Below are positions 1,643-63,039 of a DNA stretch of 64,000 nt, piece after piece. The DNA lies in the IMG/VR virus record IMGVR_UViG_3300005662_000036, positions 1 to 64,000 of that record, one strand, 5' to 3'. Both the position numbers and the translations under genes were made by a program. The notes under the pieces were generated by a model, which ran no database searches, was not told the origin of the DNA, and saw nothing but the letters and a program-made list of their open reading frames with translations. This DNA comes from a virus. Taxonomy: Duplodnaviria > Caudoviricetes. Within the stretch, counting starts at the first letter, position 1, and every line of letters begins with the position of its first letter.

Positions 1643-4600
1643 ATGAAAAATCTCACAAACCTATTGACAATGTTTGATTGTCAACTTCCGACGGGCATAC
1701 CAATCCCTCAGCTTGAATGTTTTTCTGTTTTTACCGACAATACTATAATCTATGCTATAGATCCTTTTAGTAAAAGTGCTTATATTTCATTTGTTACTTT
1801 TTTGTATAATCTAGATCCTTCGTTCGTTAGTTTCGATGCTTTGAGTAACGGAGAAGGGTATATTTTTTCAGGAGGAGATATTGCAACGCCTCCTCCTTAC
1901 GCATTATATGATACAGCTAGCGAAACTATCCCTTCTTCAAAACAACTTACGGGATTTTTCGAAATAGCTGAATACAAAAATAATAGTTCTACAAATATTT
2001 CAGATAACCCAGGAATTACTCAATTTGAGTTAATATATAAATGCGTAAATGATTCATATGATGCTTGGGTCTATGAACTCTATCTGCTTGAAGTAGATTT
2101 GGGCATACCTTTTAATAGTTTTAATACATTTGACCCTGGTGTTACTTATTTAATTCTTCATAAAATGCAGCAACCAGTAGTTCCGTATTTATTTTATGAT
2201 AACGGAGCTAATTCAGTCACCCCTACTCCAACCGTTACCCAGACTCCTTCTAACACTCAGACACCAACTCCTTCTAACACTCAGACTGTTACTCCGACAA
2301 ATACAATAGATCCCACACCAACGTTAACGGTAACTACTAGTGAAACTCCAACCCAGACTCCTTCTAACACTCAGACACCAACTCCTTCTAACACTCAGAC
2401 GCCAACTCCTTCTAATACTCAGACTGTTACTCCTTCTAATAGTTTAACACCAACTCCTTCTAATACTCAGACTGTTACTCCCTCCAACGAACCAACCCAG
2501 ACTCCTTCTAACACTCAGACGCCAACTCCTTCTAATACTCAGACTGTTACTCCTTCTAATAGTTTAACACCAACTCCTTCTAATACTCAGACTGTTACTC
2601 CCTCCACCCCTGTTCCTTTTTATTCGATAAACATTCGCAATTTAACAGATCTTGCTTCTAATTCTATTGATGAAGGATTACCTGGAGTATTTTGGCTGTC
2701 TGGTTTTAATATTTCTCAGTCGCAAATATCATATACTATTACTGGAATTTCGCAAGAAGACATCAATATACCTTTAACTGGTATTTTTGAGTCTACGGGT
2801 TCTATAGGAAATTATTGGGAGTCTGCAACTGTTGATTTTACTATATTATCCGATTTCGTTACAAACGAGGTAGAAAGGTTAATTGTCACGTTAGACGGCA
2901 TTACTCCGACCGTTTCCGCCGAATTAATTATCAACGACGTTTTACCTACTCCTACTCCTACAGTAACTCCAACAGAAACTCCAACAGAAACTCCAACGCC
3001 TACGCCTACCCCTACTCCTTCTGAAACCCCTTCTGAAACTCCAACTGTAACTCCTACTTCTTCTCAAACCCCAACAAACACGCAAACCTCTACACAGACA
3101 CAAACACCTACTCCTTCAATTACTCCTTCTAGCACTCCAATTGATTACGGCATCGTAGTTTCTCCACAACTTTCGACTGTTGGATTGATGGGAGCAACAT
3201 ATTTTGCGGTAGGAGAACCTTCAACCATCACTTTTACGATAACTTCTACCAGAAATCCAGAAACTCCAGTTAACATTGAGTATAACATAACCGGTGTTGA
3301 TTTGGCTGATTTTATTCCAGGAACTGATTTTACAGGAACTTTAAATTATCCTTTAGAAAAATTTGCTACGTTCCATGTAGTAGCTGATGCTAGAACTGAG
3401 GGAAATCAGCTAATGACATTAACAATAGTTAATGGACCAACTAATGCGATAGGTAAAAAAGGAGAAATGTATATAGTAGATACATCTCAATCTCCTCCAG
3501 CTTATACTTTGTTTTTGTCTGGAAACGGATCAACTACCGGATTTGTTAACGAAGGATCGACTGTAACGTTTGCTCTAGAAACCAGAGGAGCTTATAACGG
3601 AACACCAATTTTTTATCAAGTAACTGGAATTAACGAGGAAGACATAATTATTGGAGAATCTTCTCCTTTAAGTGGTTATTTTGTTATTAACAGTATTATA
3701 ACTACAGATACTACAGAGTTTCCTGATCCTTTGCCTGTAGATTATGCTTTTATTAAATTTGTTTTAAAAGAAGACATTTCAGCAAATGAAGGTGATGAAA
3801 CGCTCGTGGTAACATTGTCGAGTCATATAGATCCAATTAGAGGTTTAGTTTCAAGTACTGATGGAATGAATGCTGGTGTTTTAATTAAAGACACTTCAGT
3901 AACTCCAACACCTACTCCAACTTGTACTCAAACACAAACTCCATCTAATACTCAAACACAAACTCCATCTAATACTCAAACACAAACTCCATCTAATACT
4001 CAAACACAAACTCCATCTAATACTCAAACTCCCACGCCTTCTTATACACCAACTCAAACTCCGTCTAACTCACAACCTTCTACTCCAACTCCAACTCCAA
4101 CTCCGTCTCCAAGCCCAGAAATAAGTCCGTATCTTTTTAGATACGGAGGAATTGGAGCTGCTATGTTATTAGAAGCAAACACAAACGATTTTTGCGTAAA
4201 TCTTTTGACTGGCACTAACATTTTAACTGGCTCAGAAATGCCATATGAAATTTTAGGGTTCAATGGATCCACAACTTATTCTATTGATAATCCTTCGTGG
4301 TTGCCTCTCACAGGCAGTTTTGTTGTTGGATTTGATTCATCTGTTAGTTCGGATGTGATTTTGTCGAATGAAGCGGATGCCATAAGCTTCCAGCTTTCAG
4401 CTAATACGCCAGGGAATTACTATTTGATATTACATTTAACTACTAACGATCCAGTAGGAACGGAAATACCATACACATTTCTTCCGTATGATCCTTCTAC
4501 ATCACTTCCGTCTTCTCCCGCTCCTTCTCTCATGCTAGCAACTAATGCTGCAGCAAATCTTGTAACGTTCGTAGATCCTCAGCTAAATGAGTTTACCTCA

Positions 4601-5299
4601 AATAATCCTGGCCAAATAATTGATGCAAGCAATTGTTCTTCCTTAATTTCTTTAAATGCTGAGTACTGTACTCACGTAGAGGTTGTTGGCTGCACGAGTT
4701 TAAATGAATTAAATTGTTCCTTTATGGGCAACAAAGAACCATCAACATTAAATGTTTCTGGATTAGAATCATTAACAACTTTGAATTGTTCGTATTCGTA
4801 TAACATAAATTCAATCAACACAACAAATTGCTCTTCGCTGCAGAATTTATTGCTTCCAGGTACATCAGTAACTTCTCTGATATTAGCAGATTGCAACGAT
4901 ATACGTTATATTAACGTAGACTCATCAGCTAACATCAGTACGGTTAATTTATCAAATAAACTTTTATTAACAAGAGCTTCGATGAGCCATTGTGTTAGTC
5001 TTACATCAATTAACGTTTCTGGCTGTTGCTCTCTTACCGGTATACAATGTAGCTTTAATCCAAATTTAGTAGAATTAAATGCATCACAATGTTTTGCTCT
5101 CACTGTTTTTGATTTCAACCAATGCTGTTCTCTTGTTAATATTAATTTGGAAAATTGTAATCTAAACACAGAACAAGTAGACTTTGTATTGAACGCCTTG
5201 TGTTCGGACAACGGAACACTAAACATCAAAGGTAATTCAGAACCTTCTTTACTTGCTTACGACTCAATCATCTCAAAAGGATGGACAATTCACAAATAA
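1643..5299 (+). CDS. large mucin-like (Thr/Pro/Ser) virion protein with three Calx-beta-like domains and a C-terminal leucine-rich-repeat domain
   Basis: ATG 1643 preferred over TTG 1637. Three TPSNTQT/TPTETP tracts; three repeats of the type VNEGSTVTF...YxITG...D...EGxETLxVTL; C-terminal LRRs (NCSSLISLNA, GCTSLNELNCS, GLESLTTLNCS) with a GTLNIKGN...KGWTI cap. Confidence 0.75.
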   Translation: MKNLTNLLTMFDCQLPTGIPIPQLECFSVFTDNTIIYAIDPFSKSAYISFVTFLYNLDPSFVSFDALSNGEGYIFSGGDIATPPPYALYDTASETIPSSKQLTGFFEIAEYKNNSSTNISDNPGITQFELIYKCVNDSYDAWVYELYLLEVDLGIPFNSFNTFDPGVTYLILHKMQQPVVPYLFYDNGANSVTPTPTVTQTPSNTQTPTPSNTQTVTPTNTIDPTPTLTVTTSETPTQTPSNTQTPTPSNTQTPTPSNTQTVTPSNSLTPTPSNTQTVTPSNEPTQTPSNTQTPTPSNTQTVTPSNSLTPTPSNTQTVTPSTPVPFYSINIRNLTDLASNSIDEGLPGVFWLSGFNISQSQISYTITGISQEDINIPLTGIFESTGSIGNYWESATVDFTILSDFVTNEVERLIVTLDGITPTVSAELIINDVLPTPTPTVTPTETPTETPTPTPTPTPSETPSETPTVTPTSSQTPTNTQTSTQTQTPTPSITPSSTPIDYGIVVSPQLSTVGLMGATYFAVGEPSTITFTITSTRNPETPVNIEYNITGVDLADFIPGTDFTGTLNYPLEKFATFHVVADARTEGNQLMTLTIVNGPTNAIGKKGEMYIVDTSQSPPAYTLFLSGNGSTTGFVNEGSTVTFALETRGAYNGTPIFYQVTGINEEDIIIGESSPLSGYFVINSIITTDTTEFPDPLPVDYAFIKFVLKEDISANEGDETLVVTLSSHIDPIRGLVSSTDGMNAGVLIKDTSVTPTPTPTCTQTQTPSNTQTQTPSNTQTQTPSNTQTQTPSNTQTPTPSYTPTQTPSNSQPSTPTPTPTPSPSPEISPYLFRYGGIGAAMLLEANTNDFCVNLLTGTNILTGSEMPYEILGFNGSTTYSIDNPSWLPLTGSFVVGFDSSVSSDVILSNEADAISFQLSANTPGNYYLILHLTTNDPVGTEIPYTFLPYDPSTSLPSSPAPSLMLATNAAANLVTFVDPQLNEFTSNNPGQIIDASNCSSLISLNAEYCTHVEVVGCTSLNELNCSFMGNKEPSTLNVSGLESLTTLNCSYSYNINSINTTNCSSLQNLLLPGTSVTSLILADCNDIRYINVDSSANISTVNLSNKLLLTRASMSHCVSLTSINVSGCCSLTGIQCSFNPNLVELNASQCFALTVFDFNQCCSLVNINLENCNLNTEQVDFVLNALCSDNGTLNIKGNSEPSLLAYDSIISKGWTIHK
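2381..2606 (+). repeat. 106-bp perfect direct repeat (120-bp period) within the Thr/Pro stalk
   Basis: 2381-2486 is identical to 2501-2606; embedded in shorter actccttctaa[c/t]actcagac units spanning ~2240-2600. Confidence 0.85.
3926..4029 (+). repeat. 24-bp tandem repeat x4 (TQTQTPSN)
   Basis: actcaaacacaaactccatctaat, four perfect copies at 3926-4021 plus a partial copy. Confidence 0.9.
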
Positions 5300-5542: not shown

Positions 5543-6340
5543 ATGAAAACCATTCATTTTGTATCCGGACTGCCTAGATCTTGTTCTACTCTTCTCTGCA
5601 ACTTACTAGCTCAAAATCCTAAATTTCATTCAAGCTCTTCTTCCGGTTTAATCGATTTAATTTATCCAGCAAGAAAAAATTTAGTGGACTGCTTAGAGTT
5701 CAAATCTATGAATCCTGCAGATTCTGAAGCTATGTTTCTAGATTGGGCAAGAGGTGGAATATTGAACGCTTATAATTCTTTAACTAATAGACCTACGGTT
5801 TTTGATAAAGGTAGATCTTGGCTTGGATATTTAGATTTATTATTTCAACTATTTCCTGAAGCAAAAGTAATTGTTACGGTTAGAGATATTCGTGGAATTT
5901 TGACTTCAATAGAAAAAAAAAGAAAGTCTCACCCAGCCTATTTTATAGGAGAAGAAGCTAATCAACTTCATTACACCACAATTGAAAAGAGAGTACAATC
6001 TTGGCTTTCGACCCCAATTCTTGGAATTCCCATTGAAAGACTTCGTGATGCAACAAATTCGTTCAAACACAAACTTTGTTTTGTTCACGCAGAAGAACTA
6101 ACAACAAAGCCAGAAAATGTTATGAAAAATATATATTCTTATTTAGAGGAAGAGTATTATTCTCATGATTTTAATAATATCGAGCAATACACAAAAGAAC
6201 ACGATGGAGTATGGTGGCCCATTGGGGATCATTCTATTAAAAAAAACATAATGCAAATTCAAACAAATTGGGATGAAATATTAGGAAAAGAGTTGTCTGA
6301 CATATTATCAGTTAAATTTGATTGGGTTAATCATTTATAA
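5543..6340 (+). CDS. PAPS-dependent sulfotransferase
   Basis: N-terminal 5'-PSB loop FVSGLPRSCSTLLCNLLAQNP; KVIVTVRDIRGILTS (3'-PB region); HAEELTTKPENVMKNIYSYL typical of the family. Confidence 0.8.
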   Translation: MKTIHFVSGLPRSCSTLLCNLLAQNPKFHSSSSSGLIDLIYPARKNLVDCLEFKSMNPADSEAMFLDWARGGILNAYNSLTNRPTVFDKGRSWLGYLDLLFQLFPEAKVIVTVRDIRGILTSIEKKRKSHPAYFIGEEANQLHYTTIEKRVQSWLSTPILGIPIERLRDATNSFKHKLCFVHAEELTTKPENVMKNIYSYLEEEYYSHDFNNIEQYTKEHDGVWWPIGDHSIKKNIMQIQTNWDEILGKELSDILSVKFDWVNHL

Positions 6341-6373: not shown

Positions 6374-9235
6374 ATGATTAGCGATCGCACAAAAAAACTT
6401 AGGAATACAACATTTCTTAGCGGCAAACAAGATTTTCCTATACCAAGCAGAACATGCACTCCTACAACAACCCAAACGTCGACTCAAACGCCCACAAATA
6501 CTGTAACGTGCTCTCAAACTCCAACAAATACAATCACTCAAACCAAAACACCAACACAAACTCCTACTATTACAAAAACAAAAACTCCAACTCCTACTTA
6601 TACTCCAACTAAAACGCCAACTTCTACTACTACACAGACGTCAACACAAACCAAAACTCCAACAAAAACTCCCTTTCCTACTTCATCTCCGACGGTTACT
6701 CCTACAACATCTCCATGCATATCAGGTCCGAATTGTGTGGTGCATGCATCAGATGCAATATTTCTTTGTTATGATTGTTATCCACTAAAAAAACTACATC
6801 CTTCATACGACGACTTAACAGGACCTGGAAATTACTCATCGATGGGTTTAGCTTTTCCTAAAGCTAACTCCGGTTCGTTAGATAACGTTGCTATAGGACC
6901 TGGTGCTCAGGTTATAGTATATTCTTCTAGTAATTTTACTGGAACAGTGTTATTTTCTGGAATAGGACCATTAGTATTAACAAACAGCAGACACAACACC
7001 GGCAGTTATGCAGCATGTCATGTCGGAACTTATCCAGATTCTGATATACAAAACATGTTTCCGCTTTCTTCTCGAATTTGGGTAGATCTTCAACCTTGGA
7101 AGTCTGGTTCCATCAGCATTAATTGTTGTGGTGTCGTAATTCCTACTCCAACTCCAACTCCAACTCTATTGTTAGGCAATTGTGTAACACCATTCGATAC
7201 ATCAAAGGTGTTTTGGGGCACTATCGATGCAGCTGGTTCTCCCAATCAAACTATAAGCGTTCCAGCTGGAGTATTAGGAGCAAGTGCTCAAACTATAAAT
7301 ATTACATTAAATTCTCCTACATCAAATGATACGACTACAAATTCATTTTATGATTATACTAGAATTCCTTGTGCTTTTAAAAACGCGGACGGAACTGCTG
7401 CGGCAACTAATTGGGATGGAGCTAAAACATGGACCTTCTCTCAGCCAATAACAAATCCCGCTTTAGCTATTTATTCTCTTGGTAATCCAGGAGCAAGGTT
7501 GTCTTTGACTACTTCTGCGAATTCGTGGAAAATTTTATGCAATGCTGACTCTCAAGGAAGCAGATTGTGTATCAGTCAAGACGGGACAACGGTTCAAGGA
7601 CAAGAAGGATACGGAATTATTGTATTTCCTGGTACATACAATTCAATTACTATTACTTCAAATCTGTCTGAATATTGGACAAATTATGCTTGGGGAGCAG
7701 TTAGCACCACTCTTTTAAACGACACAACTTGCGAAGAATGTGCTTCGGCTCCTACTTCTACTCCAACGCCAACTAACACAAAGCTTTCTGTTTCTGTTAC
7801 ACCAACCACGACTCCTACAACTACTCCAACAAAAACGTTTAATCCGAACGCATTCCAACAATTGTTTATCAACTATAACAATTCCGGTAAAGATGTGTAC
7901 AGAACAACAGGATATCCAATTTCAGCTATTATTTCAGGATATTCTCATCCTTTAACATATGGCAGTAATGAATATAAGGTATTTAATAATACACTAAGCG
8001 CTTTAGATTTTTGGAGCTTAGCTCTTTCAGGAAGTAGTTTTACTACAAGAACCGCTGGTCCCACCATTTATGACGGATCATCATTTGTTTCTAATCCGCT
8101 TGCAAATATTTCACATCGAGGATTGTTGATACATATTACTTCTTATTCCGCATCAGACGGGTTGCTTGGTTTTGCAAGTCCAGCTTATGTAAGAACCGAT
8201 GTAGGAACTCGTTCTTTCTTAGTACCTCATGAAGGATACATGAAATTAAATTTAAATTATATTTCAACTGTCAATTTATTACCAACGCTCATACCTAGCA
8301 GAAGCGAAAATTGGTATGTAATAGTTCATGAGATTGCACACGCTTTAGGAATAGGAACGATGTGGCATAATTCCAACAATCGCTCATTTATTGTTGGAGC
8401 TGGAGACACATCAAGTACGAGCTTAAATTTGGGAGTATCAGCAAACTTTTTTTATAGTTTATCTAATGTTGGAGGTACAAGACTAGCAAACCACGTCGGT
8501 GGACCAACCCTTATTGGATCAGCGAGTGCTTTTATGGGAGACGCGAGGTTTTCGAATGCATTTAATAGTTTTCATGCAGTATCTCCTGCTTCAAAAGCTG
8601 TGCAATTTTATAATTTAGCTTATAATTTAGCTCTCACAGCAATTCCGGTTGAGAATGGAAGAGGGTTTGGTTCAATTGGAGTGCATTGGGACGAAGGACA
8701 TTCTACAGCTGACTATGGTTCAGATGATCGTTTGTATTATGGTACTTCAATTCCTTGTATGCAAGATGAATTGATGACACCTCAATCAGAAGGTAATTTT
8801 GACATGCCGATATCAAAAGTTTCATTTGGAGCACTCGAAGATTTAGGATATGCTGTAAATTACAGCATGGCAGACAATTTTGAACCTCTCGTTTATAACA
8901 TAAACTATAGTGGAGACAGCAACAATCCTCTAATTGTTGATTTTTATAATTTTACTTTAAACACACAAGGAGTGTACGGTGAAACTGATTTAATTTCAGG
9001 TAAACCAATTTATTTAAGAAAAGGAAATATATATACTTTTAAAATTACTTCTACTGTTGCTGTAAAAATAACAAATTCAGCTGATGGGTCTACTCTTGTA
9101 ACAAACGGAGTAACTAATAATAATATAACATCAGGATCCATTATTTATTCTGTTCCTGCTTCCTTATCTTCTCCAACTATTCATTGGCTTTTTGCAGAAA
9201 ATCCTCAAGCAAAAGCAAAGATAATAATTTTTTAA
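6374..9235 (+). CDS. mucin-like stalk protein with beta/gamma-crystallin-like domain and leishmanolysin-like (M8-type) zinc metalloprotease
   Basis: Thr/Pro tracts; SLDNVAIGPGAQVIVYSSSNFTG (crystallin Greek-key-like); VIVHEIAHALG (HEXXH at 8327), GVHWDEG, DELMTP, ISKVSFGALEDLGYAVNYSMAD. Confidence 0.75.
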   Translation: MISDRTKKLRNTTFLSGKQDFPIPSRTCTPTTTQTSTQTPTNTVTCSQTPTNTITQTKTPTQTPTITKTKTPTPTYTPTKTPTSTTTQTSTQTKTPTKTPFPTSSPTVTPTTSPCISGPNCVVHASDAIFLCYDCYPLKKLHPSYDDLTGPGNYSSMGLAFPKANSGSLDNVAIGPGAQVIVYSSSNFTGTVLFSGIGPLVLTNSRHNTGSYAACHVGTYPDSDIQNMFPLSSRIWVDLQPWKSGSISINCCGVVIPTPTPTPTLLLGNCVTPFDTSKVFWGTIDAAGSPNQTISVPAGVLGASAQTINITLNSPTSNDTTTNSFYDYTRIPCAFKNADGTAAATNWDGAKTWTFSQPITNPALAIYSLGNPGARLSLTTSANSWKILCNADSQGSRLCISQDGTTVQGQEGYGIIVFPGTYNSITITSNLSEYWTNYAWGAVSTTLLNDTTCEECASAPTSTPTPTNTKLSVSVTPTTTPTTTPTKTFNPNAFQQLFINYNNSGKDVYRTTGYPISAIISGYSHPLTYGSNEYKVFNNTLSALDFWSLALSGSSFTTRTAGPTIYDGSSFVSNPLANISHRGLLIHITSYSASDGLLGFASPAYVRTDVGTRSFLVPHEGYMKLNLNYISTVNLLPTLIPSRSENWYVIVHEIAHALGIGTMWHNSNNRSFIVGAGDTSSTSLNLGVSANFFYSLSNVGGTRLANHVGGPTLIGSASAFMGDARFSNAFNSFHAVSPASKAVQFYNLAYNLALTAIPVENGRGFGSIGVHWDEGHSTADYGSDDRLYYGTSIPCMQDELMTPQSEGNFDMPISKVSFGALEDLGYAVNYSMADNFEPLVYNINYSGDSNNPLIVDFYNFTLNTQGVYGETDLISGKPIYLRKGNIYTFKITSTVAVKITNSADGSTLVTNGVTNNNITSGSIIYSVPASLSSPTIHWLFAENPQAKAKIIIF

Positions 9236-9242: not shown

Positions 9243-9443
9243 ATGACTCCAACCAATATTACAAACAAAACAGAGGCTTACGATTATCTTTTTTATGTTT
9301 ATAAACAAGAAGCTGAATTTAAACCAGATCTATATGATCAAGCAAAATTATTTTTTACGGAGTTGGAATTAAAAGAATTGTACTTAGGACCAGACATTAT
9401 TTTTAACGACTGTTTTCCTTGTCACTGCAAGCATATACATTAA
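9243..9443 (+). CDS. small hypothetical protein with Cys/His-rich C-terminus
   Basis: 66 aa ending CFPCHCKHIH; convergent with the portal gene, 4-nt overlap. Confidence 0.5.
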   Translation: MTPTNITNKTEAYDYLFYVYKQEAEFKPDLYDQAKLFFTELELKELYLGPDIIFNDCFPCHCKHIH

Positions 9444-13508: not shown

Positions 13509-13811
13509 ATGAGTAACGATTTTATTGAAAAAGCATCAGCTGCATTAAAAGAGGCAGCAAAAACAATGCATGAGCGAGGCGGCGAATATGCTGATACGTG
13601 GGGAAAAGACGGGTGCTGGCATCTAACCAAGTCCATTATTAAAAAATATACAGAAAAAGAACTTGATAACGAATCCGTAAAAGCTATTGCGTTAGCTTCT
13701 TTTATAGATCAAAAGTATTCTCGATTTGCTGGAGGTTATAAACACGATACAGCACTAGACTTAATTCCTTATTTGGGAGCACTTTCAGAAACAATTAAAC
13801 AACAACAATAA
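13509..13811 (+). CDS. small helical protein resembling DUF6378 / nucleotide-modification-associated domain proteins
   Basis: AAKTMHERGGEYADTW resembles the ERGxxYG / KxxDYG motif; DTALDLIPY resembles the DxxxDLxxY motif of these phage proteins. Confidence 0.45.
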   Translation: MSNDFIEKASAALKEAAKTMHERGGEYADTWGKDGCWHLTKSIIKKYTEKELDNESVKAIALASFIDQKYSRFAGGYKHDTALDLIPYLGALSETIKQQQ

Positions 13812-13814
13812 ATA
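13809..13814 (+). promoter_or_regulatory. TAAATA late-promoter-like motif upstream of the glycosylation cassette
   Basis: 12 nt before ATG 13827. Confidence 0.5.
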
Positions 13815-15066: not shown

Positions 15067-15642
15067 ATGGAAAAAAAGTTTTTTGTAGTTTCTTTACCAA
15101 GAACCGGAACATCGTCGATAACAAAAATGGCTTTAACGTGTGGGTTAAAGCCTCGACATGCTCCACATTCTCTGTGGAAAAGGTTTGCTACAGATCACAA
15201 TTTTTTGTCAGATACTCCAATATACTGTCCTTTTGCTATAAACGAATTTTGCCAAAACGAAAAACTAAACTGTCATTTTATTTACATAGATAGAGAGTGG
15301 GAAGATCTGTTCCAATCATGGAAAAACTCTAAATTGTTTGCGAACTACGAAAGTATGAAAAAAAACTATTTAGATCCAAACTATAATAAACCAATTCCAT
15401 ATGATTTTATTGCATATCAATCAGCATTTAATGGAGATTTGTTGAACGAGCAAAATTACGCAAGCTTGTTTGAAACGCACAAAACCACAGTATTTGATAT
15501 AATCAAGGCTCACAATAAACCGTTGCTTGTTTATAGTTTTAACCAAGGATGGGAGCCTTTTTGCAACTTTATCGAGAAAGATGTTCCTAGTGATATTTTA
15601 CCACATTTAAATAAAGGTAAAATGCTAGACAAAATTGTTTGA
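15067..15642 (+). CDS. sulfotransferase (Sulfotransfer_4-like)
   Basis: FFVVSLPRTGTSS at the N-terminus and LLVYSFNQGWEPFCNFIEKDVPSDILPHLN at the C-terminus. Confidence 0.75.
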   Translation: MEKKFFVVSLPRTGTSSITKMALTCGLKPRHAPHSLWKRFATDHNFLSDTPIYCPFAINEFCQNEKLNCHFIYIDREWEDLFQSWKNSKLFANYESMKKNYLDPNYNKPIPYDFIAYQSAFNGDLLNEQNYASLFETHKTTVFDIIKAHNKPLLVYSFNQGWEPFCNFIEKDVPSDILPHLNKGKMLDKIV

Positions 15643-15651: not shown

Positions 15652-15661
15652 TAAATAAATA
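15652..15661 (+). promoter_or_regulatory. tandem TAAATA late-promoter-like motifs
   Basis: TAAATA at 15652-57 and 15656-61; 8 nt before ATG 15670. Confidence 0.45.
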
Positions 15662-18094: not shown

Positions 18095-18099
18095 AGATT

Positions 18100-52872: not shown

Positions 52873-52880
52873 TATAAATA
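52873..52880 (+). promoter_or_regulatory. full T4-type late promoter TATAAATA
   Basis: Exact TATAAATA, 6 nt before GTG 52887. Confidence 0.65.
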
Positions 52881-52886
52881 ATCCAA

Positions 52887-55800: not shown

Positions 55801-57860
55801 TAACTGGTTGGAATTATAATACAAATAAAGCTAAACCAAAAGCTCTTGGAGCGAAACCCTATTGGGCAGATTTATATCTTGACAAACAACTAGCTACTCG
55901 TTTTCGAGGAGTATTGTCGTGGGGATTTCCTTATAATTTTTTAGAAGATTATCTTCCTGATCATGCTCCTAGATTATCTTTATTACGTTTAAATTATGGA
56001 ACAATAGTAAAATATAAAAGACAGGGGTATGACTTGATTTGGAGCCAGCCTTTTATTTTTAAAAATTATTCCGGCACTTCTATTTGGTGTCAAATATCCT
56101 CAATTACCACACCAACGTCTAATTTATCTGCATTGTTTAATACTAAACGTATAGATGAACTAAATGTAATTCCTACTAAACTACCGACAGATATACTTTT
56201 GACCAATATCAAAAACAGTCTTCCGGTAGAAATTTATTACAACGCTCTTAACAGTTTTACATGGCCAATAACATCTGAAATACAGATAGAAACAACAAAC
56301 GAAAGCATTGAAACAGCATATGAATCACAAAATCCGTGGAATAATTTAAACAATCGGTTTTTTTCTACAATTGCGACGTTACCTGTATTAGAAGATCTGT
56401 ATTCTTTAGTAGATGTTGGTGGTTATTTTATTCCACAACATCTTGGTGCTTCTCAGTTTATCAATAAAGATTTTGAGCATTTTTTAAAAACCAACGATGC
56501 TTTTGAAAACGTTCTTGTAGAAGACACCAGCATTCATATAGGAGGCAGAGGAAGAACTAAACAAGATCAACCTACTATTTATGATTGGCAAGAACAAAAC
56601 CAATGGATGAAAGAACCTCCGTCTGCAGGAGTTAAATCAGGAGCAGTTAAAAGCGAATGGACAAAAACACTGCAAACGTTTTTGCCGTATGAAGAAAATT
56701 CCGAAGAAGTTTCTTTAGGATTAGTTACCCCATGGAGCAAAAATTCCCCATGGGGAGGAAAAGAAGGGGATGAGTGGATTGATACATTAAATCATCCAAA
56801 AAGTCTTACGGAAGTTCCTAACGTTTCAGCTTGGATTGACACACAAGTTCTTAAAAACAGCAATCAGATTGCTGATAATTGGATAACAGATATTTTTGGA
56901 AACCAGTATGCTCTTTACAAACAACTAACTAATATTGCTGTTGGAAACGCACCTAAAAAAACAGGTGAGTTGTGGGTTAAAACAAATTCAGGAAGAGTAT
57001 TGCCAGCATATAAAGCTTTGTCTGCGGTATTTAATGCATTCAAGTACGAATCTTTTTACTCTGAGTTAACAGGAAATGGAATTAAAACAGTTGACTGTTT
57101 TTTCGATACGATTTTATTTGAAACCGAAACATCTGTAGTACTATTTCAACTAGAGTATGATTACAACACAGAAGAAATAGGAATCAATGTAGACAATACA
57201 ATAATCGTTTCTGATTTGTACATTAAAAACTTACGTTTTGAACGTTCTTGGTTAACACCTAAAACCAAAACAATTGCTCTGCTGTTTACTGATTTCAACT
57301 CCAGCTCTTTTATTCCAACCATATACACATTAAATTTAGCAAACAGAGTATACGCTAGATCGTTTCCCATTACTCTTCAAGATTATACAGATATTTCGGC
57401 TGGATTATCTGGCATTTCGATTCATCAATTAGACAAAGCGGCATATTATTTTAATTCTTTACTACAAACCAGTTTAATAACGTACAAAGGTGTTGATAAA
57501 TTTAATAAGCTATTCTTTGTTGATTTTGAAATCGAACATCAAGAAAACCTTATTTTAAAAACAATCAATCGATTTATTGATACAACGTATTTACTAGACG
57601 TTCAATTTCCTCCTATTGTGGATGAAATGTTTTTTGAACCAATTCCGGTTACTACAGGATTCCCGTTTGTCATTAGTGTCACAGCATCAAACTCACCTTT
57701 GAATTATGAAATTTTAGGAACACCTCCATTTCCTATAACCGTTTCTCCAACTGGAATGTTTTCAGGGACTGTGTCTTTATCCGGACTATATTATGTTAAT
57801 TATAGAGTAATAAATCAGATTGGATATACTTCATATGGTTTGACAATAAATGCGACATGA
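52887..57860 (+). CDS. very large virion/baseplate structural protein
   Basis: 1657 aa; late promoter; Trp-rich beta-type sequence; Ig-like segment FAFTPPETGTYKITVSAS; C-terminal Ig-like segment. Confidence 0.6.
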   Translation: MESVYLNQFINYNKEEQQIDTNEPLSFLEWKRQKPDLIEKQAAAHYNLYVINWFQNNKRKPLSTKFLLKQKYLYLLFQLHVFFTEEEKQIWYNKINFADERELLISIPFFARKLKQIALYYLHLRKKLKNTKLKYNLAGTSFGLEQEIYNLFIRTFTDFNNEALPNLLETLPSLSGIRDSLVVQIEDIYDDVDYFDKSTTIPISGYYNLFHAATEKFYQTKGITLSSSEWVFSALNASSSDSVDLFVSQLTGAFLEVTSALEYEEFIKNFIAENKFLTSFVKTSASPDVITIDIQQGNNAFYYPYGFVDPSILFERQIVPVALSSITLEGATAGNNLETSDTIFIKNGNEVSGAWLYYKQYEDVTENLRASFAQNATTTFVFPFPGYGLSGEDLPWTGRSVKYTPGFNFLTNEMKTLVNKEYWTSPLENSNIEPILLNNTTLISQKATANTNPKFADQITTSLWNVTNNLLPAVDTNGSWLYKFLKTAWPIGKKSPNVFLWPYHIVDPEQDDMSYLYSQIYMKDVCDTVKLSTLNFSFAIAASSIEFADKIYKLHNFSDVISQATECCWLSSCTTTFNATKYKTFGQNGFSALFDSEKTTRFLWTGPTTDLSAVFVPNITHKPECYFSTANLSLTSNLEWEKCSCKQVYYSPFGHPGKTFEENNGFADFIAKDATNNLFEFDFDSWRSTTNSRFWSSPDVAWYKTKKTIGWGGGEWISNVQSGGAPFKLEPGKTYFYRRAGSRLNSSSFPAYSVNYDFGSKQARWITAKQNDRGEWVSFGEPSAMSFKPGDFIKYERAQSTQCWLMSSRLVEEQSTNYGSKWSTFDYIASGSALGTTYISWPMEDNQMLSDPQLPPVTFFDVEKIYFWEIQNLQKPWLISRYYSTQVNIDIPGITGFTTATTQTVVSNKMSFAFTPPETGTYKITVSASAKGVGDFSFTDIPLLTVVPPYREEELLVPFNFPSSGFLFEETLTGWNYNTNKAKPKALGAKPYWADLYLDKQLATRFRGVLSWGFPYNFLEDYLPDHAPRLSLLRLNYGTIVKYKRQGYDLIWSQPFIFKNYSGTSIWCQISSITTPTSNLSALFNTKRIDELNVIPTKLPTDILLTNIKNSLPVEIYYNALNSFTWPITSEIQIETTNESIETAYESQNPWNNLNNRFFSTIATLPVLEDLYSLVDVGGYFIPQHLGASQFINKDFEHFLKTNDAFENVLVEDTSIHIGGRGRTKQDQPTIYDWQEQNQWMKEPPSAGVKSGAVKSEWTKTLQTFLPYEENSEEVSLGLVTPWSKNSPWGGKEGDEWIDTLNHPKSLTEVPNVSAWIDTQVLKNSNQIADNWITDIFGNQYALYKQLTNIAVGNAPKKTGELWVKTNSGRVLPAYKALSAVFNAFKYESFYSELTGNGIKTVDCFFDTILFETETSVVLFQLEYDYNTEEIGINVDNTIIVSDLYIKNLRFERSWLTPKTKTIALLFTDFNSSSFIPTIYTLNLANRVYARSFPITLQDYTDISAGLSGISIHQLDKAAYYFNSLLQTSLITYKGVDKFNKLFFVDFEIEHQENLILKTINRFIDTTYLLDVQFPPIVDEMFFEPIPVTTGFPFVISVTASNSPLNYEILGTPPFPITVSPTGMFSGTVSLSGLYYVNYRVINQIGYTSYGLTINAT

Positions 57861-59812
57861 ATCCTAAATTCGAAAACACGTTTGCGACAATGGGCTTTAA
57901 GAGTCTTTTGACCGTTCCTCCTGATTACAGTTGGGATGAAGGCAGTCCTCTTGTTGAATATCCTTCAAACAAACTGGTTTTTAATGACCCATCTCTTGTT
58001 TTATCCAGCACTAACAATTGTGAAGGAATAGAGTATGTAGCGTATTCTCCTTTTGCTGTTCTTACTCTCTCATCGACAATGAGAATTGATTTGTCAGCTG
58101 TTTCCGTTAAAAGAGTAATGAATTTTGGTGATTATTATAACTCGGAAAGCAATATTGTTGTAAGTTCCTCAACATCCGCTGAAAATTTTTGCCACACATA
58201 TGTGATGCCGGGTTTATACTCCGTAAGCTTGGAGTTTACAGAGTTCATTCAAAGTACACCTCACGATTTTTCTGTATATTCTTGCATTGAACGATACTGT
58301 AGAGAGTGGACTTGGAAATCGACATACTGCACTCCTACAGTTTTAACTGAAGTCACTTGGCTTAGCACTTTAAGTGGAGGTCCTTTAGAAAAAAGATGGA
58401 AAGACCGTTATGATGAAGAATGTAAAGAAACTTGGATGTATACTGGTGGGTTGTATGTTCAGCCGATCGAGTTGATTCCACCACATCCTCTTTTTTGGCA
58501 GTGGTATAACTTCAGTTGTTTTCCTAACGACAATCTCAGAAATCGAGATATAACATGGCAAGGAGCTTCTTTTCAACAGTCTGATGAACTAATATGGAGA
58601 GATGTAGGTAGTCCATGTTTAAATCTGCCTTATAGAGAAAATTCTTGGGTGTGGATGCATCAAACTTGTTCTTCTCTTCTCACTAGCGGAGCATTGACTC
58701 CATCTTCTATGTGGAACGAAATGGAATGTGATTCCAGTAATAGAAGAACATGGGACGAAGCACAAAAAAATTGTTTTGAATATCCTTATACTTTATATAA
58801 AGTTGCTAAAAAATATGTAAAAGAACATCTTTTGAGGGTAATCGAAATACCACCAGTTGCTTATTTGCATGTAGATCAATCAAAAAATTTTCACAATAGA
58901 ATTTCCCCTTATCAGGTTCGTCTGTCGCCTCGTTTTATCAAATGCGGAAGCTTTCCAATAGAAAAAATTGTGTGGGATTTGGGTGATGGCTCTCCTCTTT
59001 TAGTTCAAAAAAGATGGGACGTAAATAAAAGCTCTCAGTTTATATACACAGGAACGTATGATTTGGATTGGGAGGATCCTAGAAATTTCGATGTTATTCA
59101 CACGTATACCGTAACGCCACGAACTGGATATTCTTTTTATCCTTCTCTGACGTGTTATGCTAGCTCGACATACACTTCCGATTGTGCAACTGGAATAGTT
59201 GGACCATTAAAGCTCAAAGCTCTACAAGAAACAGATGATGACTCCGTTGAAAACGTATTTAACTTACGTTTGATTCAAAACGAGATAACAGAATCTGGTA
59301 AATTGTTATTAGGTGAAATTGGAAGAACAGCTGTTATATGGAGATATGGAACAAAGAATGAAGAACCAACTATTAATCCAATAACAATAAGAGCTCATTA
59401 TAAACCGGGCTCTGTAAATATACGTTATAATATTACTTTAAATGAGCCAAGCGATGTTGATTTATTGATACAATTTACTAACGTATTATACACCACAACA
59501 TCTCCCTTAAGTGTTGATGTGATCTTACCCGTTGATAGTAATTCAACTACAGCAGAAACCAGTAGAACTCTGTTTGAGTCATATTCCTTTTTAGATCAGC
59601 AATCAGAATTTTTTAATATAAAAGTAATTCCGCTACAACCTTCAAAATACATACATCAAACAGAATTTGTTCCGACGTTTGAACCACAACCCTCAAGCAC
59701 TCCTCAACCAACACCATTGCCCACTCCAACACCAATTCCTAATTGTGATTTAGTAGTATCGATAAAGGATATTTCTTGTGACTTATCTTACACTGTAACT
59801 ATTACACCTTAA
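57857..59812 (+). CDS. virion protein with two PKD-like domains, Trp/Cys-rich repeats and a short Thr/Pro tract
   Basis: MNFGD...HTYVMPGLYSVSL and VWDLGDGS...HTYT; W-x(2-6)-C repeats between them; PTPLPTPTP near the C-terminus. Confidence 0.6.
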   Translation: MNPKFENTFATMGFKSLLTVPPDYSWDEGSPLVEYPSNKLVFNDPSLVLSSTNNCEGIEYVAYSPFAVLTLSSTMRIDLSAVSVKRVMNFGDYYNSESNIVVSSSTSAENFCHTYVMPGLYSVSLEFTEFIQSTPHDFSVYSCIERYCREWTWKSTYCTPTVLTEVTWLSTLSGGPLEKRWKDRYDEECKETWMYTGGLYVQPIELIPPHPLFWQWYNFSCFPNDNLRNRDITWQGASFQQSDELIWRDVGSPCLNLPYRENSWVWMHQTCSSLLTSGALTPSSMWNEMECDSSNRRTWDEAQKNCFEYPYTLYKVAKKYVKEHLLRVIEIPPVAYLHVDQSKNFHNRISPYQVRLSPRFIKCGSFPIEKIVWDLGDGSPLLVQKRWDVNKSSQFIYTGTYDLDWEDPRNFDVIHTYTVTPRTGYSFYPSLTCYASSTYTSDCATGIVGPLKLKALQETDDDSVENVFNLRLIQNEITESGKLLLGEIGRTAVIWRYGTKNEEPTINPITIRAHYKPGSVNIRYNITLNEPSDVDLLIQFTNVLYTTTSPLSVDVILPVDSNSTTAETSRTLFESYSFLDQQSEFFNIKVIPLQPSKYIHQTEFVPTFEPQPSSTPQPTPLPTPTPIPNCDLVVSIKDISCDLSYTVTITP

Positions 59813-59820: not shown

Positions 59821-60558
59821 ATGTCAGCATCTATCACGTTCAATTCAATAAATTTTTTAAATTTATCTGCAGATTTGTCGTTTTATCCACTTACTGGTGG
59901 GTTTGAACATATAGGGTTAGTAAACATACCTTACGTTCACAATTCTTTGGGTTATTATTACGGAACATATGAATTTACTTTTGGAACTTATAACAAAACT
60001 TGCTCAATTCAAGTTCTTCCAGTTCCAGCAACACCTACTCCTACTCCTACTATTACCAATACTCCAACAAATAGCCAAACTCCAAACCCCACACCTACTA
60101 CTACACCAACTCAAAGCAATCCACCTACAAATACTCCAACTCCAACAATTACACCATCAAATACTGCTACCTTGGGTTCTACTCCTACTCCAACACGAAC
60201 TTCTACTCTTTCTCCTTCACCGACACCATCCGCAACGATTTCAACAGCTTCTACTGTTTTAACACAGAACGCTTTAGGTGTATCCTGTACTCAGTGTTCA
60301 TCAAATGGTATCTCAATGTCATTTAATGTGATTGGAACGAGCTTGACGTTCGCTCCATTAACAACACCAGGTTCTCTACCTTCGAGTTTGTTTATATACA
60401 AGTCTGGTACTATCATCGGACGCATTACAGTAACGTCTGGATACAGAGCTACTCCAGTTTCGATGGTTCTTGTATATAGCGGAGTTACTTATACGTTTTT
60501 ATCAAATGGTGGAACTGCTGTAACCACACCCGCAAACGGATTTCGAATAGATGTTTAA
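59821..60558 (+). CDS. mucin-like Thr/Pro stalk protein
   Basis: About 65-aa central TPTPT tract between two small beta-type domains. Confidence 0.7.
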   Translation: MSASITFNSINFLNLSADLSFYPLTGGFEHIGLVNIPYVHNSLGYYYGTYEFTFGTYNKTCSIQVLPVPATPTPTPTITNTPTNSQTPNPTPTTTPTQSNPPTNTPTPTITPSNTATLGSTPTPTRTSTLSPSPTPSATISTASTVLTQNALGVSCTQCSSNGISMSFNVIGTSLTFAPLTTPGSLPSSLFIYKSGTIIGRITVTSGYRATPVSMVLVYSGVTYTFLSNGGTAVTTPANGFRIDV

Positions 60559-60567: not shown

Positions 60568-63039
60568 ATGAAAACAATAACTCAAAGCGGAATGGAGGCA
60601 ATTGAATGTCAAGTTGTTGGCAATAAAGATATAAGCAGTTTAAGTAATTTATCAAATTTAACAACAATAACTGGTATTGGTTACGCTTCTGATAATAGAA
60701 CGTTTGCTGGTTGGATTAGCTGGTTGTACTTTTTTTATACAAACGGACTTGATATCCTTAATTCCCTTCAAACATTAGTAAAAAACAACGGATATTTAGT
60801 GGAACTTATCTCAACGGCTTCTGTTCCATTTACTCTTTATTCAGATACAGATAATTTTCCTTCAACTAAAATCATTCAAAGAGAAATAGAAATAGCAGAA
60901 TATAGAGGAACGTCGAATTTACTAATCACCGATTCGCCATTTATTAATGAATTATTAGAGGTGTATCATTATGACGGATTTGGTTGGGTCAGCTGGATTT
61001 TTGGTCTTTGGAGTGGAGGACTAAATGAATTTAATTCGTTAGAAAAGTTTGAGCCAAATAAAACATATTTAATTGTAAACAAAACTACGTTTTCAGATTA
61101 TGTTTTTTACAATTCTGCTCCTGCGTCCTCGCCAACACCAACTCAAACAAACACACCAACTCAGTCTCCCTCTGTAACACCAACCCAGACTGTAACACCA
61201 ACCCAGACTGTAACACCGACACCAACAGAAACTAATTTTGCACTGCCTCCTGCTACTCCAACTCAAACAGCAACTCCTCCACCTACTCCGAACCCCACTA
61301 CTACATCTACCGTTACGTCTTCGATTACTCCAACTAAAACGGTGACTAAAACATCAATGGCTACTCCTAACCCTACAAGTACGCCCACTCCAACAAATAC
61401 TACTACTTCCACACCAACACAAACTTTTACTCAAACATCAACCCCCTCTCAAACACCAACACAAACTCCGACTAGAACTGCAGCTCCGACTCCAAATCCT
61501 ACAAGTTCCCCAACTCAAACTAATACTCCAATACCAAGCCAAACTCCAACTAAAACAGCAGCTCCTACGCCAAATCCGACGAGTACTCCTACAATTACAT
61601 CAACTGAAACGCCAACCAGGACTGCAGCTCCAACTCCAAATCCTACAAGCACTTCAACGGGCACGCCAATGCCCACTCCAAATCCAACTTCAACTAAAAC
61701 ACCAGTTCCTACACCAAATCCAACAAGCACTCCTACTCCAACTAAAACGGCAGTTCCTACACCAAATCCAACAAGCACTCCTACTCCTACTCAAACTCCA
61801 ACTAAAACGGCAGTTCCTACACCAAATCCAACAAGCACACCAACTCAAACTCCAACTAAAACGGCAGTTCCTACACCAAATCCAACAAGTACTCAAACTC
61901 CAACTAAAACGGCAGTTCCTACACCAAATCCAACAAGTACTCAAACTCCAACTAAAACGGCAGTTCCTACACCAAACCCAACAAACACTAACACACCAAG
62001 CCAAACTCCAACTAAAACGGCAGTTCCTACACCAAATCCAACAAGTACTTCTACTCCAACAAAGACTGCAGCTCCTACACCAAATCCAACAAATTCTCCA
62101 ACAACAACTCAAACCCCTTCTAATACTCAAACACCAACTCCAACTCAAACTCCAACACCTTCAACTACTCCAGATCCAACGAAGACGCCAACGACCACTC
62201 CAGATCCAACTAAAACACCAACTCAGACTAAAACAAGCACACCGGATCCAACTAAAACACCAACTCAGACAAGAACACAAACTCCGACTATATCTAATCC
62301 ATGTCCGATACCATCTGGAGGAACAGCTTTTATTTCAAATATTAACTGTTCTCTTACTGAATGTAAAGTTTTTGCAAGAAATGATGGATGGTTTACTTTC
62401 AGCACAAGTTCGAGTACAACAAAACTATGGTTTGATAAATACACCAAACAAATTAAAACTAACAATACAAGTGATATTAAAAGGTTTTGGGGTTGGACTC
62501 ATTTTAATAACGGATGTGAAGACACGTATAGTGGAATCACCGTTGATCTCACAAAAGTTCCTCTAATAGAAGAATTCGTTACATCTGGATTTGGTCACAA
62601 CATAACTGGATTTAATGCTGCAGGTTGTGCGAGTTTAGTTACGGTAGATATTGGCAATGGTTTACACAACATGACTACATGCGATTTTTCCAATTGCACT
62701 TCTTTACAAGTTCTTGATTTAAATGGTACGTCTAGTGCTAAAAGATTAAATTCTATTAATTTAACAAATTGCAAAAAGATAAGAGATTTGCGTTTACAAA
62801 ACCATAGTTTATCCCTTGCCTCATTAAAAACTATAATTAGTATTATACATACTGGTGCTACAACAAATAGTATAACAAACGGCTATTTAGATTTAACTGG
62901 TAATCCTGGTTGGGCATCAGCAAAGACTGATGCCACTGCCAAGGCTCAATTAAAGTTTTTATCTAAATGTACCTCAAAAACAAGTACTGGTTATACTTGG
63001 ACTATTGTAGGATGGAGTCCGTGTACAGATGGTTATTAA
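60568..63039 (+). CDS. mucin-like stalk protein with C-terminal leucine-rich-repeat domain
   Basis: Duplicated N-terminal module (FAGWISW...L..L..N.GYL / FVSWIFG...F..LEKFEPNKTYLI); ~390-aa T/P tract; LRRs (GCASLVTVDIG, NCTSLQVLDLNG, NCKKIRDLRLQN) with a GYLDLTGNPG cap. Confidence 0.75.
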   Translation: MKTITQSGMEAIECQVVGNKDISSLSNLSNLTTITGIGYASDNRTFAGWISWLYFFYTNGLDILNSLQTLVKNNGYLVELISTASVPFTLYSDTDNFPSTKIIQREIEIAEYRGTSNLLITDSPFINELLEVYHYDGFGWVSWIFGLWSGGLNEFNSLEKFEPNKTYLIVNKTTFSDYVFYNSAPASSPTPTQTNTPTQSPSVTPTQTVTPTQTVTPTPTETNFALPPATPTQTATPPPTPNPTTTSTVTSSITPTKTVTKTSMATPNPTSTPTPTNTTTSTPTQTFTQTSTPSQTPTQTPTRTAAPTPNPTSSPTQTNTPIPSQTPTKTAAPTPNPTSTPTITSTETPTRTAAPTPNPTSTSTGTPMPTPNPTSTKTPVPTPNPTSTPTPTKTAVPTPNPTSTPTPTQTPTKTAVPTPNPTSTPTQTPTKTAVPTPNPTSTQTPTKTAVPTPNPTSTQTPTKTAVPTPNPTNTNTPSQTPTKTAVPTPNPTSTSTPTKTAAPTPNPTNSPTTTQTPSNTQTPTPTQTPTPSTTPDPTKTPTTTPDPTKTPTQTKTSTPDPTKTPTQTRTQTPTISNPCPIPSGGTAFISNINCSLTECKVFARNDGWFTFSTSSSTTKLWFDKYTKQIKTNNTSDIKRFWGWTHFNNGCEDTYSGITVDLTKVPLIEEFVTSGFGHNITGFNAAGCASLVTVDIGNGLHNMTTCDFSNCTSLQVLDLNGTSSAKRLNSINLTNCKKIRDLRLQNHSLSLASLKTIISIIHTGATTNSITNGYLDLTGNPGWASAKTDATAKAQLKFLSKCTSKTSTGYTWTIVGWSPCTDGY
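61741..62045 (+). repeat. coding minisatellite: six copies of actaaaacggcagttcctacaccaaa[t/c]ccaac (KTAVPTPNPT)
   Basis: Copies start at 61741, 61801, 61855, 61903, 61951 and 62011 (spacings 60/54/48/48/60, all multiples of 3). Confidence 0.9.

Follow-up and report, generated by a model that had tools for sequence, protein, structure and literature searches.

Glycosyltransferases (GTs) of the CAZy family GT60 are polypeptide alpha-N-acetylglucosamine (GlcNAc) transferases that initiate mucin-type O-glycans in Dictyostelium and Trypanosoma cruzi (PMC8724618). The substrates of those that have been characterised are polypeptides rich in Thr/Ser or in Pro, and the family members differ from the polypeptide N-acetylgalactosamine transferases (ppGalNAc-Ts) of family GT27 by the absence of a C-terminal ricin-type lectin domain (PMC8724618). 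Replacement of the usual GT-A motif, DxD, by DxH is a hallmark common to GT27 and GT60 only (PMC7185993). Here, we describe a GT60-led cassette of six contiguous genes (13827-20523), and a set of proteins with long tracts rich in Thr and Pro ('T/P' proteins), encoded together in one stretch of viral DNA. This stretch, 'the window', covers the leading 64 kb of an IMG/VR viral contig 72.9 kb long (IMGVR_UViG_3300005662_000036; completeness estimate 33%; GC 35%). Its source is a large, distantly T4-like myovirus with a genome of roughly 220 kb, known from metagenome data only. We argue, mainly from comparisons of sequences, that this phage probably glycosylates the Thr/Pro stalks of its own appendages by means of the cassette, and we put the probability of this at about 0.68.

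Virus-encoded glycosylation of virions takes several forms. In the cluster F1 mycobacteriophages Che8 and Rita, phage glycosyltransferases modify the phages' own structural proteins inside the host, so that the particle acquires a coat of glycans (PMC11256854, PMC12582341). Those phages are small siphoviruses, and the targets reported for them are major capsid proteins (PMC11256854), whereas the targets proposed here are tandem-repeat stalks of jumbo myoviruses, and the machinery here includes a GT60 initiator and a large, variable cassette with sulfotransferases. Giant viruses provide a further parallel. The capsid glycans of chloroviruses and the fibrils of Mimivirus are made by virus-encoded, host-independent, cytoplasmic glycosylation, using multi-domain enzymes that combine glycosyltransferases and methyltransferases; these are viruses of eukaryotes, however, with other initiators and other acceptors. 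To our knowledge, none of them pairs GT60 with mucin repeats.

A precedent is the Xanthomonas jumbo phage XacN1. Its virions contain at least two Schiff-stained glycoprotein bands (PMC5852040, Suppl. Fig. S4), and its authors proposed that the glycosyltransferases encoded by open reading frames (ORFs) 328 and 334 (ORF328 and ORF334) make the virion glycoproteins (PMC5852040). We find that ORF334 is a GT60 homolog, 49% identical to the window enzyme, in a cluster that includes a carbamoyltransferase and a GT9. ORF325, a protein of 3313 aa with T/P tracts, lies after the baseplate-wedge genes and beside the GT cluster. T/P tracts are numerous in XacN1, as in the window phage: a DNA pattern coding for (TP)4 matches 109 times at ≤2 mismatches, versus once in the control. 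Besides ORF325, the ORFs with such tracts include ORF350 and others at 83-132 kb and 249-285 kb. The two phages represent separate lineages on a portal tree, and differ in their tailoring genes. An earlier note on the window, written from its sequence alone, knew of no GT60-initiated, sulfated and methylated mucin coat on a myovirus. XacN1 qualifies that statement, since it has both a GT60 homolog and stained virion glycoproteins. The XacN1 paper neither recognised the family as GT60 nor drew a link to Thr/Pro tracts (PMC5852040). That paper alone turned up in our search of the literature on jumbo-phage glycoproteins, and a search for GT60 together with phage found nothing relevant.

The enzyme genes, a second sulfotransferase gene that lies outside the cassette, and two upstream motifs are as follows. 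Genes are named throughout by their first coordinate.

5543..6340, plus strand: sulfotransferase, between two stalk genes
13809..13814, plus strand: TAAATA, late-promoter-like, 18 nt before the GT60 start
13827..15065, plus strand: GT60-family glycosyltransferase, proposed initiator
15067..15642, plus strand: sulfotransferase
15652..15661, plus strand: two overlapping TAAATA (15652/15656), before gene 15670
15670..16611, plus strand: GT-B-like glycosyltransferase (Glyco_trans_1_2/GT90/RXYLT1-like), from Atlas matches
16598..17461, plus strand: HtrL_YibB-like single-domain protein
17480..18094, plus strand: S-adenosylmethionine (SAM) methyltransferase, CmcI/rhamnosyl-O-methyltransferase type, from a family-level profile match
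18070..20523, plus strand: fusion of an FkbM methyltransferase, an HtrL-like GT-A and a GT2-like GT-A, 817 aa

The product of gene 13827 matches the GT60 profile PF11397 (GlcNAc/GT60) with E 1.1e-70 and 239 bits, where the gathering cut-off is 21, and the alignment takes in residues 1-44 and 97-350 of the 352-position profile; it also matches phrog_24687 with E 1.5e-182. It comprises 412 residues: a catalytic domain (~aa 1-325) followed by a conserved, beta-rich C-terminal domain of ~90 aa (~aa 325-412). An alignment of 24 homologs at 67-86% identity has an average column identity of 74% across all 412 residues. Four motifs do not vary in it: D90-S91-H92 (the DxH motif), ASYRD, HGEE and WHEYTR. 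When an AlphaFold2 (AF2) model of the protein (pLDDT 89) is compared with solved structures by VIA-align, the top 29 rows are all GT27 ppGalNAc-Ts (Z 18.7-22.1, ~275 residues, root-mean-square deviation ~3.6 Å). Other GT-A enzymes score Z ≤17.4, and the best Foldseek match (E 2.5e-10) is again a GT27 enzyme. A lectin-like role for the beta-rich C-terminal domain was considered; the structural alignments barely cover this domain, and we make no call either way. From sequence and model together, we propose that gene 13827 encodes a GT60 polypeptide N-acetylhexosamine (HexNAc) transferase that initiates on Thr/Ser.

The protist members of GT60, in Dictyostelium and T. cruzi, belong to the same Pfam family and have the same DxH motif (PMC7185993), and the repeats that we propose as acceptors resemble those of protist mucins. 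Like Gnt1, the cytoplasmic enzyme that acts on Skp1, the phage enzyme is soluble and has no membrane anchor. It is distinguished from the protist enzymes by its predicted site of action, the bacterial cytoplasm, by its additional C-terminal domain of ~90 aa, and by its place in a hypervariable cassette. The GT27 ppGalNAc-Ts, which densely glycosylate Thr/Ser/Pro tandem repeats, are the nearest solved structures (Z ~22 over ~275 residues), and have DxH as well. They are only 10-14% identical to the phage enzyme, however, belong to a different Pfam and CAZy family, and operate in the Golgi lumen rather than the cytoplasm; nor could a ricin-type lectin domain be aligned, in comparisons that barely cover the C-terminal domain of the phage enzyme.

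The candidate acceptors are encoded to either side of the cassette. We defined a tract as a 30-aa window in which T+P+S amount to ≥70% (the 'strict rule'), and used a laxer rule for gene 57857.

1643..5299, plus strand: stalk protein, 1218 aa; Thr/Pro tandem-repeat tracts aa 190-325, 429-502 and 751-827; candidate acceptor
6374..9235, plus strand: protein, 953 aa; Thr/Pro tracts aa 22-120 (N-terminal) and 455-492 (internal); candidate acceptor
57857..59812, plus strand: baseplate-distal protein, 651 aa; short C-terminal Thr/Pro linker, ~27 aa (laxer rule)
59821..60558, plus strand: protein, 245 aa; 86-aa Thr/Pro tract aa 65-150; TAAATA at -11; candidate acceptor
60568..63039, plus strand: stalk protein, 823 aa; 395-aa Thr/Pro tandem-repeat tract aa 182-576; candidate acceptor

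By the strict rule, the tracts total 287 aa (gene 1643), 137 aa (6374), 86 aa (59821) and 395 aa (60568). These are the four long-tract proteins to which the earlier note had drawn attention, and the short tract in 57857 is likewise where that note had seen it. The tracts are far beyond what chance would produce, because a complete 217-kb sister genome, G007, has none by the strict rule. At the DNA level they are tandem repeats, some copies of which are 100% identical (for example 2381-2606, with a period of 120 and a 100% match, and 61675-62092, with periods of 48/108). The protein encoded by gene 1643 consists of an N-terminal domain of ~185 aa, three tracts with globular domains between them, and a Cys-rich C-terminus that resembles leucine-rich repeats (LRRs; the match to LRR_EndoS is weak, E 8e-4). 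An LRR-like tip recurs in the protein encoded by gene 60568, where the Pfam match is again weak, and the N-terminal domains of the two proteins are homologous (~185 aa, 29% identity, E 5e-16). Gene 59821 follows directly after the baseplate genes, which span 47754-59812. The C-terminal domain of the 6374 product contains a zinc-binding motif, HEIAH, and matches leishmanolysin (M8) very weakly (E 0.0086); judging by sequence, the phage particle may thus carry a metalloprotease tethered by a stalk. PHROGs and Pfam searches with the products of the large neighbouring genes 49599 and 52887, and with ten T/P proteins of relatives, returned almost no annotation.

G007 amounts to a natural knockout. 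Its genome is complete, has terminal repeats, and is nested among GT60-positive relatives. It is syntenic with the window phage, with which it shares 68% identity in the portal, 81-83% in the class I ribonucleotide reductase (RNR) and 45-61% in the baseplate. In G007, the ortholog of 13509-13811 is followed, after 27 bp, by the ortholog of gene 20572, so exactly the six cassette genes are missing, in a clean indel. At separate sites, G007 is also without orthologs of genes 547, 1643, 5543, 6374, 59821, 60568 and 71646, and unrelated fibre genes that are not T/P-rich sit where 60568 and others would be. Its ortholog of 57857 (476 aa) aligns to aa 11-496 only, the linker-bearing C-terminal part being missing, and searches for HtrL and Sulfotransfer_3 found no match in G007. 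That genes were lost or gained at four separate loci argues for functional coupling of cassette and tracts, rather than hitch-hiking. Gene 20572 was considered as a further cassette member and rejected: it has several predicted transmembrane (TM) segments and is conserved beside the empty cassette site in G007. As a gene of the backbone (20572-21579, directly after the cassette), it encodes five hydrophobic segments and is 56% identical in G007.

Cassette and tracts also go together across more distant genomes. For phyletic scoring we used the (TP)4-coding DNA pattern at ≤1 mismatch, for which a reversed-pattern control gave ≤1 hit. It is a crude proxy, in that G024 has 1 hit though it encodes 278 aa of tract, and the 1 hit in G007 is a 28-aa stretch; seven genomes were checked by protein composition besides. 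The pattern is present in all eight near-complete GT60-positive genomes (G001, G002, G003, G024, G025, XacN1, Xoo-sp13 and RAS14). Thirteen GT60-negative genomes have no hit (RsoM2USA, SCTP-2, XbC2, CBB, Vibrio 2.275.O, RaK2, XaC1, Phosso, four cyanophages and G015), and the fourteenth, G007, has the one hit just mentioned. Measured by protein composition, G000, G001, G003 and G024 contain 278-950 tract residues, while G007 and G015 contain none by the strict rule. The earlier note had held that its reading would fail if GT60 were common in phages that have no T/P proteins, and among these near-complete genomes that pattern was not seen. Two of the negatives, XbC2 and XaC1, are Xanthomonas phages like XacN1 and have neither GT60 nor tracts, so the host is not the explanation.

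On a portal tree (a quick IQ-TREE run, in which the long branches of G026, SCTP-2 and RsoM2USA leave some joins unsure), the presence of GT60 changes at least five times, and tract state agrees with it in every clade, the only mismatches being two incomplete GT60-positive contigs, G023 and G008. Two genomes fall outside this tree: G024 (behind locus L058) and G025 (behind locus L078), both 100% complete according to CheckV, have GT60 and tracts and no PF07230 portal match. They may be further lineages, and the cassette may occur also in phages without a T4-type portal.

Proximity of the genes points the same way. In the 80 best loci related to that of the window ('related loci' below), 25 have a T/P-rich ORF immediately next to the cassette, and the order of the genes differs among them. 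Thirty of at most 160 cassette flank positions are T/P-rich (19%), compared with 4.0% of the other ORFs in the same loci, an enrichment of about fivefold; genome-wide, T/P-rich ORFs make up 2-3% in G001 and G003. Sorted by their non-T/P domains, the T/P proteins, those flanking the cassette and those elsewhere, belong to at least 24 unrelated families, and the association of the cassette is therefore with the tract, and not with any one gene.

Several observations weigh against stalk glycosylation, and a number of them suit what we regard as its most serious rival: that the cassette glycosylates other virion sites or proteins (the capsid, or tail-tube termini as in mycobacteriophages), and that the tracts are plain flexible linkers. 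Capsid glycosylation by phage enzymes is known for Che8 and Rita (PMC11256854, citing Freeman 2023). Neither the XacN1 paper nor its supplement names the ORFs of the stained bands (PMC5852040). In about one-third of the related loci, the 10 kb around the cassette contain no T/P ORF. G023, GT60-positive, has no T/P ORF in 181 kb even by composition (54% complete); G008, also GT60-positive, shows no tract (59% complete); and G010, a GT60-negative fragment (24% complete), has six pattern hits. All three are incomplete, and so neither refute the association nor fit it. The co-variation itself amounts to ~5 transitions and three clean sister contrasts, related genomes sharing their labels. The T/P proteins receive no structural annotation from PHROGs or Pfam, and their location on the virion is something we infer from gene position and promoter motif only. 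A PDB sequence search with the GT60 protein gave no match at E ≤0.01, and the comparisons made here therefore include no solved GT60 structure. Gene 5543 has a homolog (36% identity) in the GT60-negative G015, and is not, then, strictly tied to the cassette. Overall, the support for stalk glycosylation is comparative, not biochemical, and no glycopeptide has been observed. Against the idea that the acceptors lie elsewhere on the virion stand three points: the initiator family acts on Thr/Ser- or Pro-rich polypeptide (PMC8724618), and its fold is nearest to that of the mucin-type ppGalNAc-Ts; tract state tracks GT60 throughout the clades of the portal tree, and does so too for the nested loss in G007, which extends to three other sites; and T/P ORFs are enriched about fivefold beside the cassette. 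Shared ancestry alone would not account for these results. On balance, we think modification of other virion proteins unlikely, and continue with the stalks as the probable acceptors.

The rest of the cassette suggests that the glycan is elaborated beyond its first sugar. The C-terminal part of gene 18070 is the most regular companion of GT60. The whole product of this gene matches FkbM (PF05050, 6e-15) and HtrL_YibB (PF09612, 1e-19), and an 828-aa Atlas cluster of which 46% of members are annotated GT2. The AF2 model of residues 245-817 (pLDDT 85) has two tandem GT-A domains, from which it follows that HtrL/YibB domains are GT-A-like. Foldseek matches this module (E 1e-11 to 1e-6) to LH3 (1.3e-11), LARGE1, Mimivirus R699 (2e-10), ColGalT1, K4CP and PmHS2; the resemblance to R699 is a link, by fold, to the giant viruses described above. 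Genes 15670 and 16598 have no Pfam match, and their assignments come from Atlas feature and structure matches: 15670 has a feature score of 0.96-0.98 and a structure TM score of 0.71-0.74 to GT-B clusters, and 16598 has a TM score of 0.73-0.74 to HtrL_YibB clusters, which makes its product, on modelled structure, a probable GT-A-like transferase. NCBIfam had no match for these two or for GT60, nor for either small sulfotransferase model.

Both sulfotransferases combine a family profile with an N-terminal loop of the kind that binds 3'-phosphoadenosine 5'-phosphosulfate (PAPS), the features expected of PAPS-dependent enzymes. The 5543 product matches Sulfotransfer_3 (PF13469, 6.5e-16; 59.7 bits versus 27), has the PAPS-loop-like LPRSCST, and matches NoeE-like proteins weakly (4.7e-07). 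The 15067 product matches Sulfotransfer_4 (PF17784, 1e-17; 65.1 bits versus 22.8) and has the loop LPRTGTS; it has a homolog in only one of the 80 related loci, and so counts as a variable tailoring gene. Gene 17480 itself falls below the Pfam cut-off (Methyltransf_24, 4e-4; RMNT_CmcI, 1.9e-3), and its relatives (~42% identity, 30 of 80 loci) form one family, a representative of which is above it (RMNT_CmcI, 1.5e-07).

These results bear out what the earlier note had read from the window: a cassette of GT60-like, sulfotransferase, GT-B, HtrL-like, methyltransferase and FkbM-HtrL-GT genes, a second sulfotransferase at 5543, and TAAATA late motifs at 13809 and 15652. The Pfam searches that it recommended returned profile matches for GT60, HtrL, FkbM and both sulfotransferases. 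It had also described the enzymes as free of signal peptides and TM segments, and we found neither a TM segment nor a signal-like N-terminus in any window enzyme or Thr/Pro protein. TAAATA occurs 7-22 nt upstream of 17 of 53 window starts, mostly those of predicted structural genes or genes without assigned function, and was not found, among these 53, before the RNR or clamp-loader genes. The start codons of the window mostly lack an obvious Shine-Dalgarno sequence, and many lie 11-18 nt after TAAATA.

GT60 genes of this kind are common. They form more than 7,600 protein clusters at 90% identity, all metagenomic, and occur on at least 253 IMG/VR contigs; the window protein itself recurs on a contig of 224.5 kb. 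Isolates with GT60 are few: only XacN1, Xoo-sp13, CM1 and RAS14 (47-50% identity). In the 80 related loci, GT60 (67-78% identity) and the dual-GT-A gene, the HtrL and C-terminal two-thirds of 18070 (~53% identity, in 72 of the 80), stand at the two ends of a run of 1-8 variable genes. Homologs of 15670 are found in 20 of these loci and homologs of 16598 in 21; none of the window's non-cassette genes was found within 10 kb of GT60 in any of the 80. The variable genes number 341, in 89 families. They include glycosyltransferases (GT25, GT10 fucosyltransferase, GT2, GT31, GT17, GT34, GT7C and RXYLT1), methyltransferases (FkbM, CmcI, TylF and others), and carbamoyltransferase, DegT, NTP_transferase and HAD proteins. 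Several of the families in the L004-L083 cassettes are best known from eukaryotes (GT10, GT17, GT31 galactosyltransferase, GT34, GT7 and RXYLT1), and one of these cassettes encodes a carbamoyltransferase like XacN1 ORF333. Two contigs carry tandem GT60 copies (L025:6127-8617, whose copies share 67% and 72% identity with the enzyme of the window; and G006:C1:66919-69046), which could be initiators that differ in acceptor or donor preference.

This variability calls to mind surface polysaccharides, and the cassette might instead modify host envelope glycans (lipopolysaccharide (LPS) or capsule, to block superinfection or to change the cell), or a host protein or small molecule, the T/P proteins being unrelated. 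HtrL/YibB, GT25, GT9 and FkbM-type genes are indeed typical of LPS and polysaccharide loci, and the hypervariable middle genes, like those for O-antigens, would fit such a product. The cassette proteins of the window have no membrane span, however, and no undecaprenyl-phosphate machinery is found among the matches listed: when 84 representatives of the variable families were surveyed with Pfam, no initiating phosphoglycosyltransferase, flippase, ABC transporter or polymerase was among them (the list covers the 25 commonest Pfam families; 14 rarer ones lie outside it). The genomes are large, T4-like and of lytic type, and the motif upstream of the cassette is common to predicted structural genes. 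Modification of the host envelope also leaves unexplained the joint loss of cassette and T/P genes in G007, and we consider it improbable.

Glycosyltransferases of phages are best known for modifying DNA, and it is conceivable that the cassette serves to hypermodify the phage's DNA with sugars and so to evade restriction, much as T4 does by glucosylating hydroxymethylcytosine. The XacN1 authors mentioned this role (PMC5852040), and the C-terminus of the 18070 product matches TAGT (TET-associated GT) very weakly (E 0.072). Such a function would be hard to square with the remaining data. The ThyA-family deoxynucleoside-monophosphate hydroxymethylase, PF00303, was not found in the complete GT60-positive genomes G001, G003 and G024, while 10 of 14 reference genomes, searched as a control, did contain it. 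A complement of 6-10 enzymes, among them fucosyl-, galactosyl-, sulfo- and carbamoyl-transferases, is far larger than any known sugar modification of DNA would require. The initiator family acts on polypeptides (PMC8724618), and a link to T/P tracts would not be expected. Accordingly, we regard DNA modification as very improbable indeed.

Stalk glycosylation, then, might proceed in the following way. Late in infection, soluble enzymes would be expressed in the host cytoplasm together with the virion appendage proteins. The appendages would consist of globular parts (the anchor domain, the LRR tips and the protease-like domain) linked by long Thr/Pro tandem-repeat stalks. The GT60 enzyme, a predicted retaining GT-A transferase with DxH, would place the first HexNAc, probably GlcNAc from UDP-GlcNAc, on Thr/Ser residues of the stalks. 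The conserved two-domain GT-A enzyme (HtrL-like plus GT2-like) would elongate this first sugar, and lineage-specific tailoring would complete the glycan, here by means of the GT-B enzyme, the second HtrL-like protein, a pair of methyltransferase domains and the two sulfotransferases, which would draw on PAPS from the host. The product would be a stiff and extended stalk, probably resistant to proteases and here probably anionic, that keeps the binding or enzymatic tips off the particle. The earlier note had arrived at a similar picture. Its core, phage-encoded glycosylation of the stalks, gains comparative support from co-gain and co-loss and from adjacency; the sulfated, methylated, anionic and protease-resistant character that it gave to the coat we infer from the enzymes present.

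A bolder version of this scheme deserves mention. The dual-GT-A enzyme resembles the bifunctional polymerases LARGE1, K4CP (chondroitin polymerase) and heparosan synthase, and for this reason GT60 and the dual-GT-A enzyme might together lay down a repeating disaccharide on the Thr/Pro stalks, with sulfation, methylation, fucosylation or carbamoylation according to lineage, to form a proteoglycan-like coat. We offer this as a tentative and rather doubtful extension. If it were so, the hypervariable genes in the middle would give the virus a counterpart of O-antigen diversity. Behind that diversity there could be an arms race with receptors of the host, with proteases or with grazers, or else mimicry or binding of environmental glycans.

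The identity of the phage is indicated by genes away from the cassette, two of which are:

9440-11353, minus strand: T4-type portal, PF07230 (1.5e-94), just 27-29% identical to cyanophage gp20; adjoins gene 6374
gene 47754: gp6-like baseplate wedge, phrog_219 (1e-38)

Together with collar/fibre proteins, a clamp loader and the class I RNR, also encoded in the window, these identify the window as a fragment of a distantly T4-like myovirus. The RNR subunits (43759-46421, minus strand) share 81-83% identity with their G007 counterparts and 73-82% with those in G001, and are much better conserved than the structural genes (23-68% identity). Fibre-like proteins encoded in 34880-41685 (753, 171, 669, 288 and 293 aa) match tail-collar/fibre PHROGs and map to just two G007 genes, which suggests local expansion of the fibre repertoire. 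Genes 28071-29186 (371 aa) and 29200-30306 (368 aa) both correspond to one and the same gene in each of G007, G001 and G003 (identity to the G007 gene, 37-38%), and are thus a tandem duplication specific to the window phage. A scan of the whole window found no tRNA genes.

The system that we propose would be a new form of phage virion glycosylation, composed of a GT60 initiator, a dual-GT extender, hypervariable tailoring and mucin-like stalks, and widespread in environmental jumbo phages. Documented virion glycosylation in phages has so far been confined to a few mycobacteriophages and a hint in XacN1. What we describe is a recognisable module, present in several jumbo-phage lineages, with a predicted pair of enzyme and substrate. 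It extends to the viruses of bacteria a glycosyltransferase family studied in protists, and it allows HtrL/YibB domains to be assigned, on structure, to the GT-A-like transferases. Whether phages make mucin-like glycoproteins, and for what purpose, becomes a question that can be tested in cultured phages of Xanthomonas and Stenotrophomonas. The answer would bear on how stable therapeutic and biocontrol phages are, how they recognise their hosts and how the immune system recognises them, and the enzymes may furnish tools for cytoplasmic O-glycoengineering in bacteria. Should the proteoglycan-like coat prove real, it would be the first case of mucin- or glycosaminoglycan-like biosynthesis carried out by a virus wholly within the bacterial cytoplasm.

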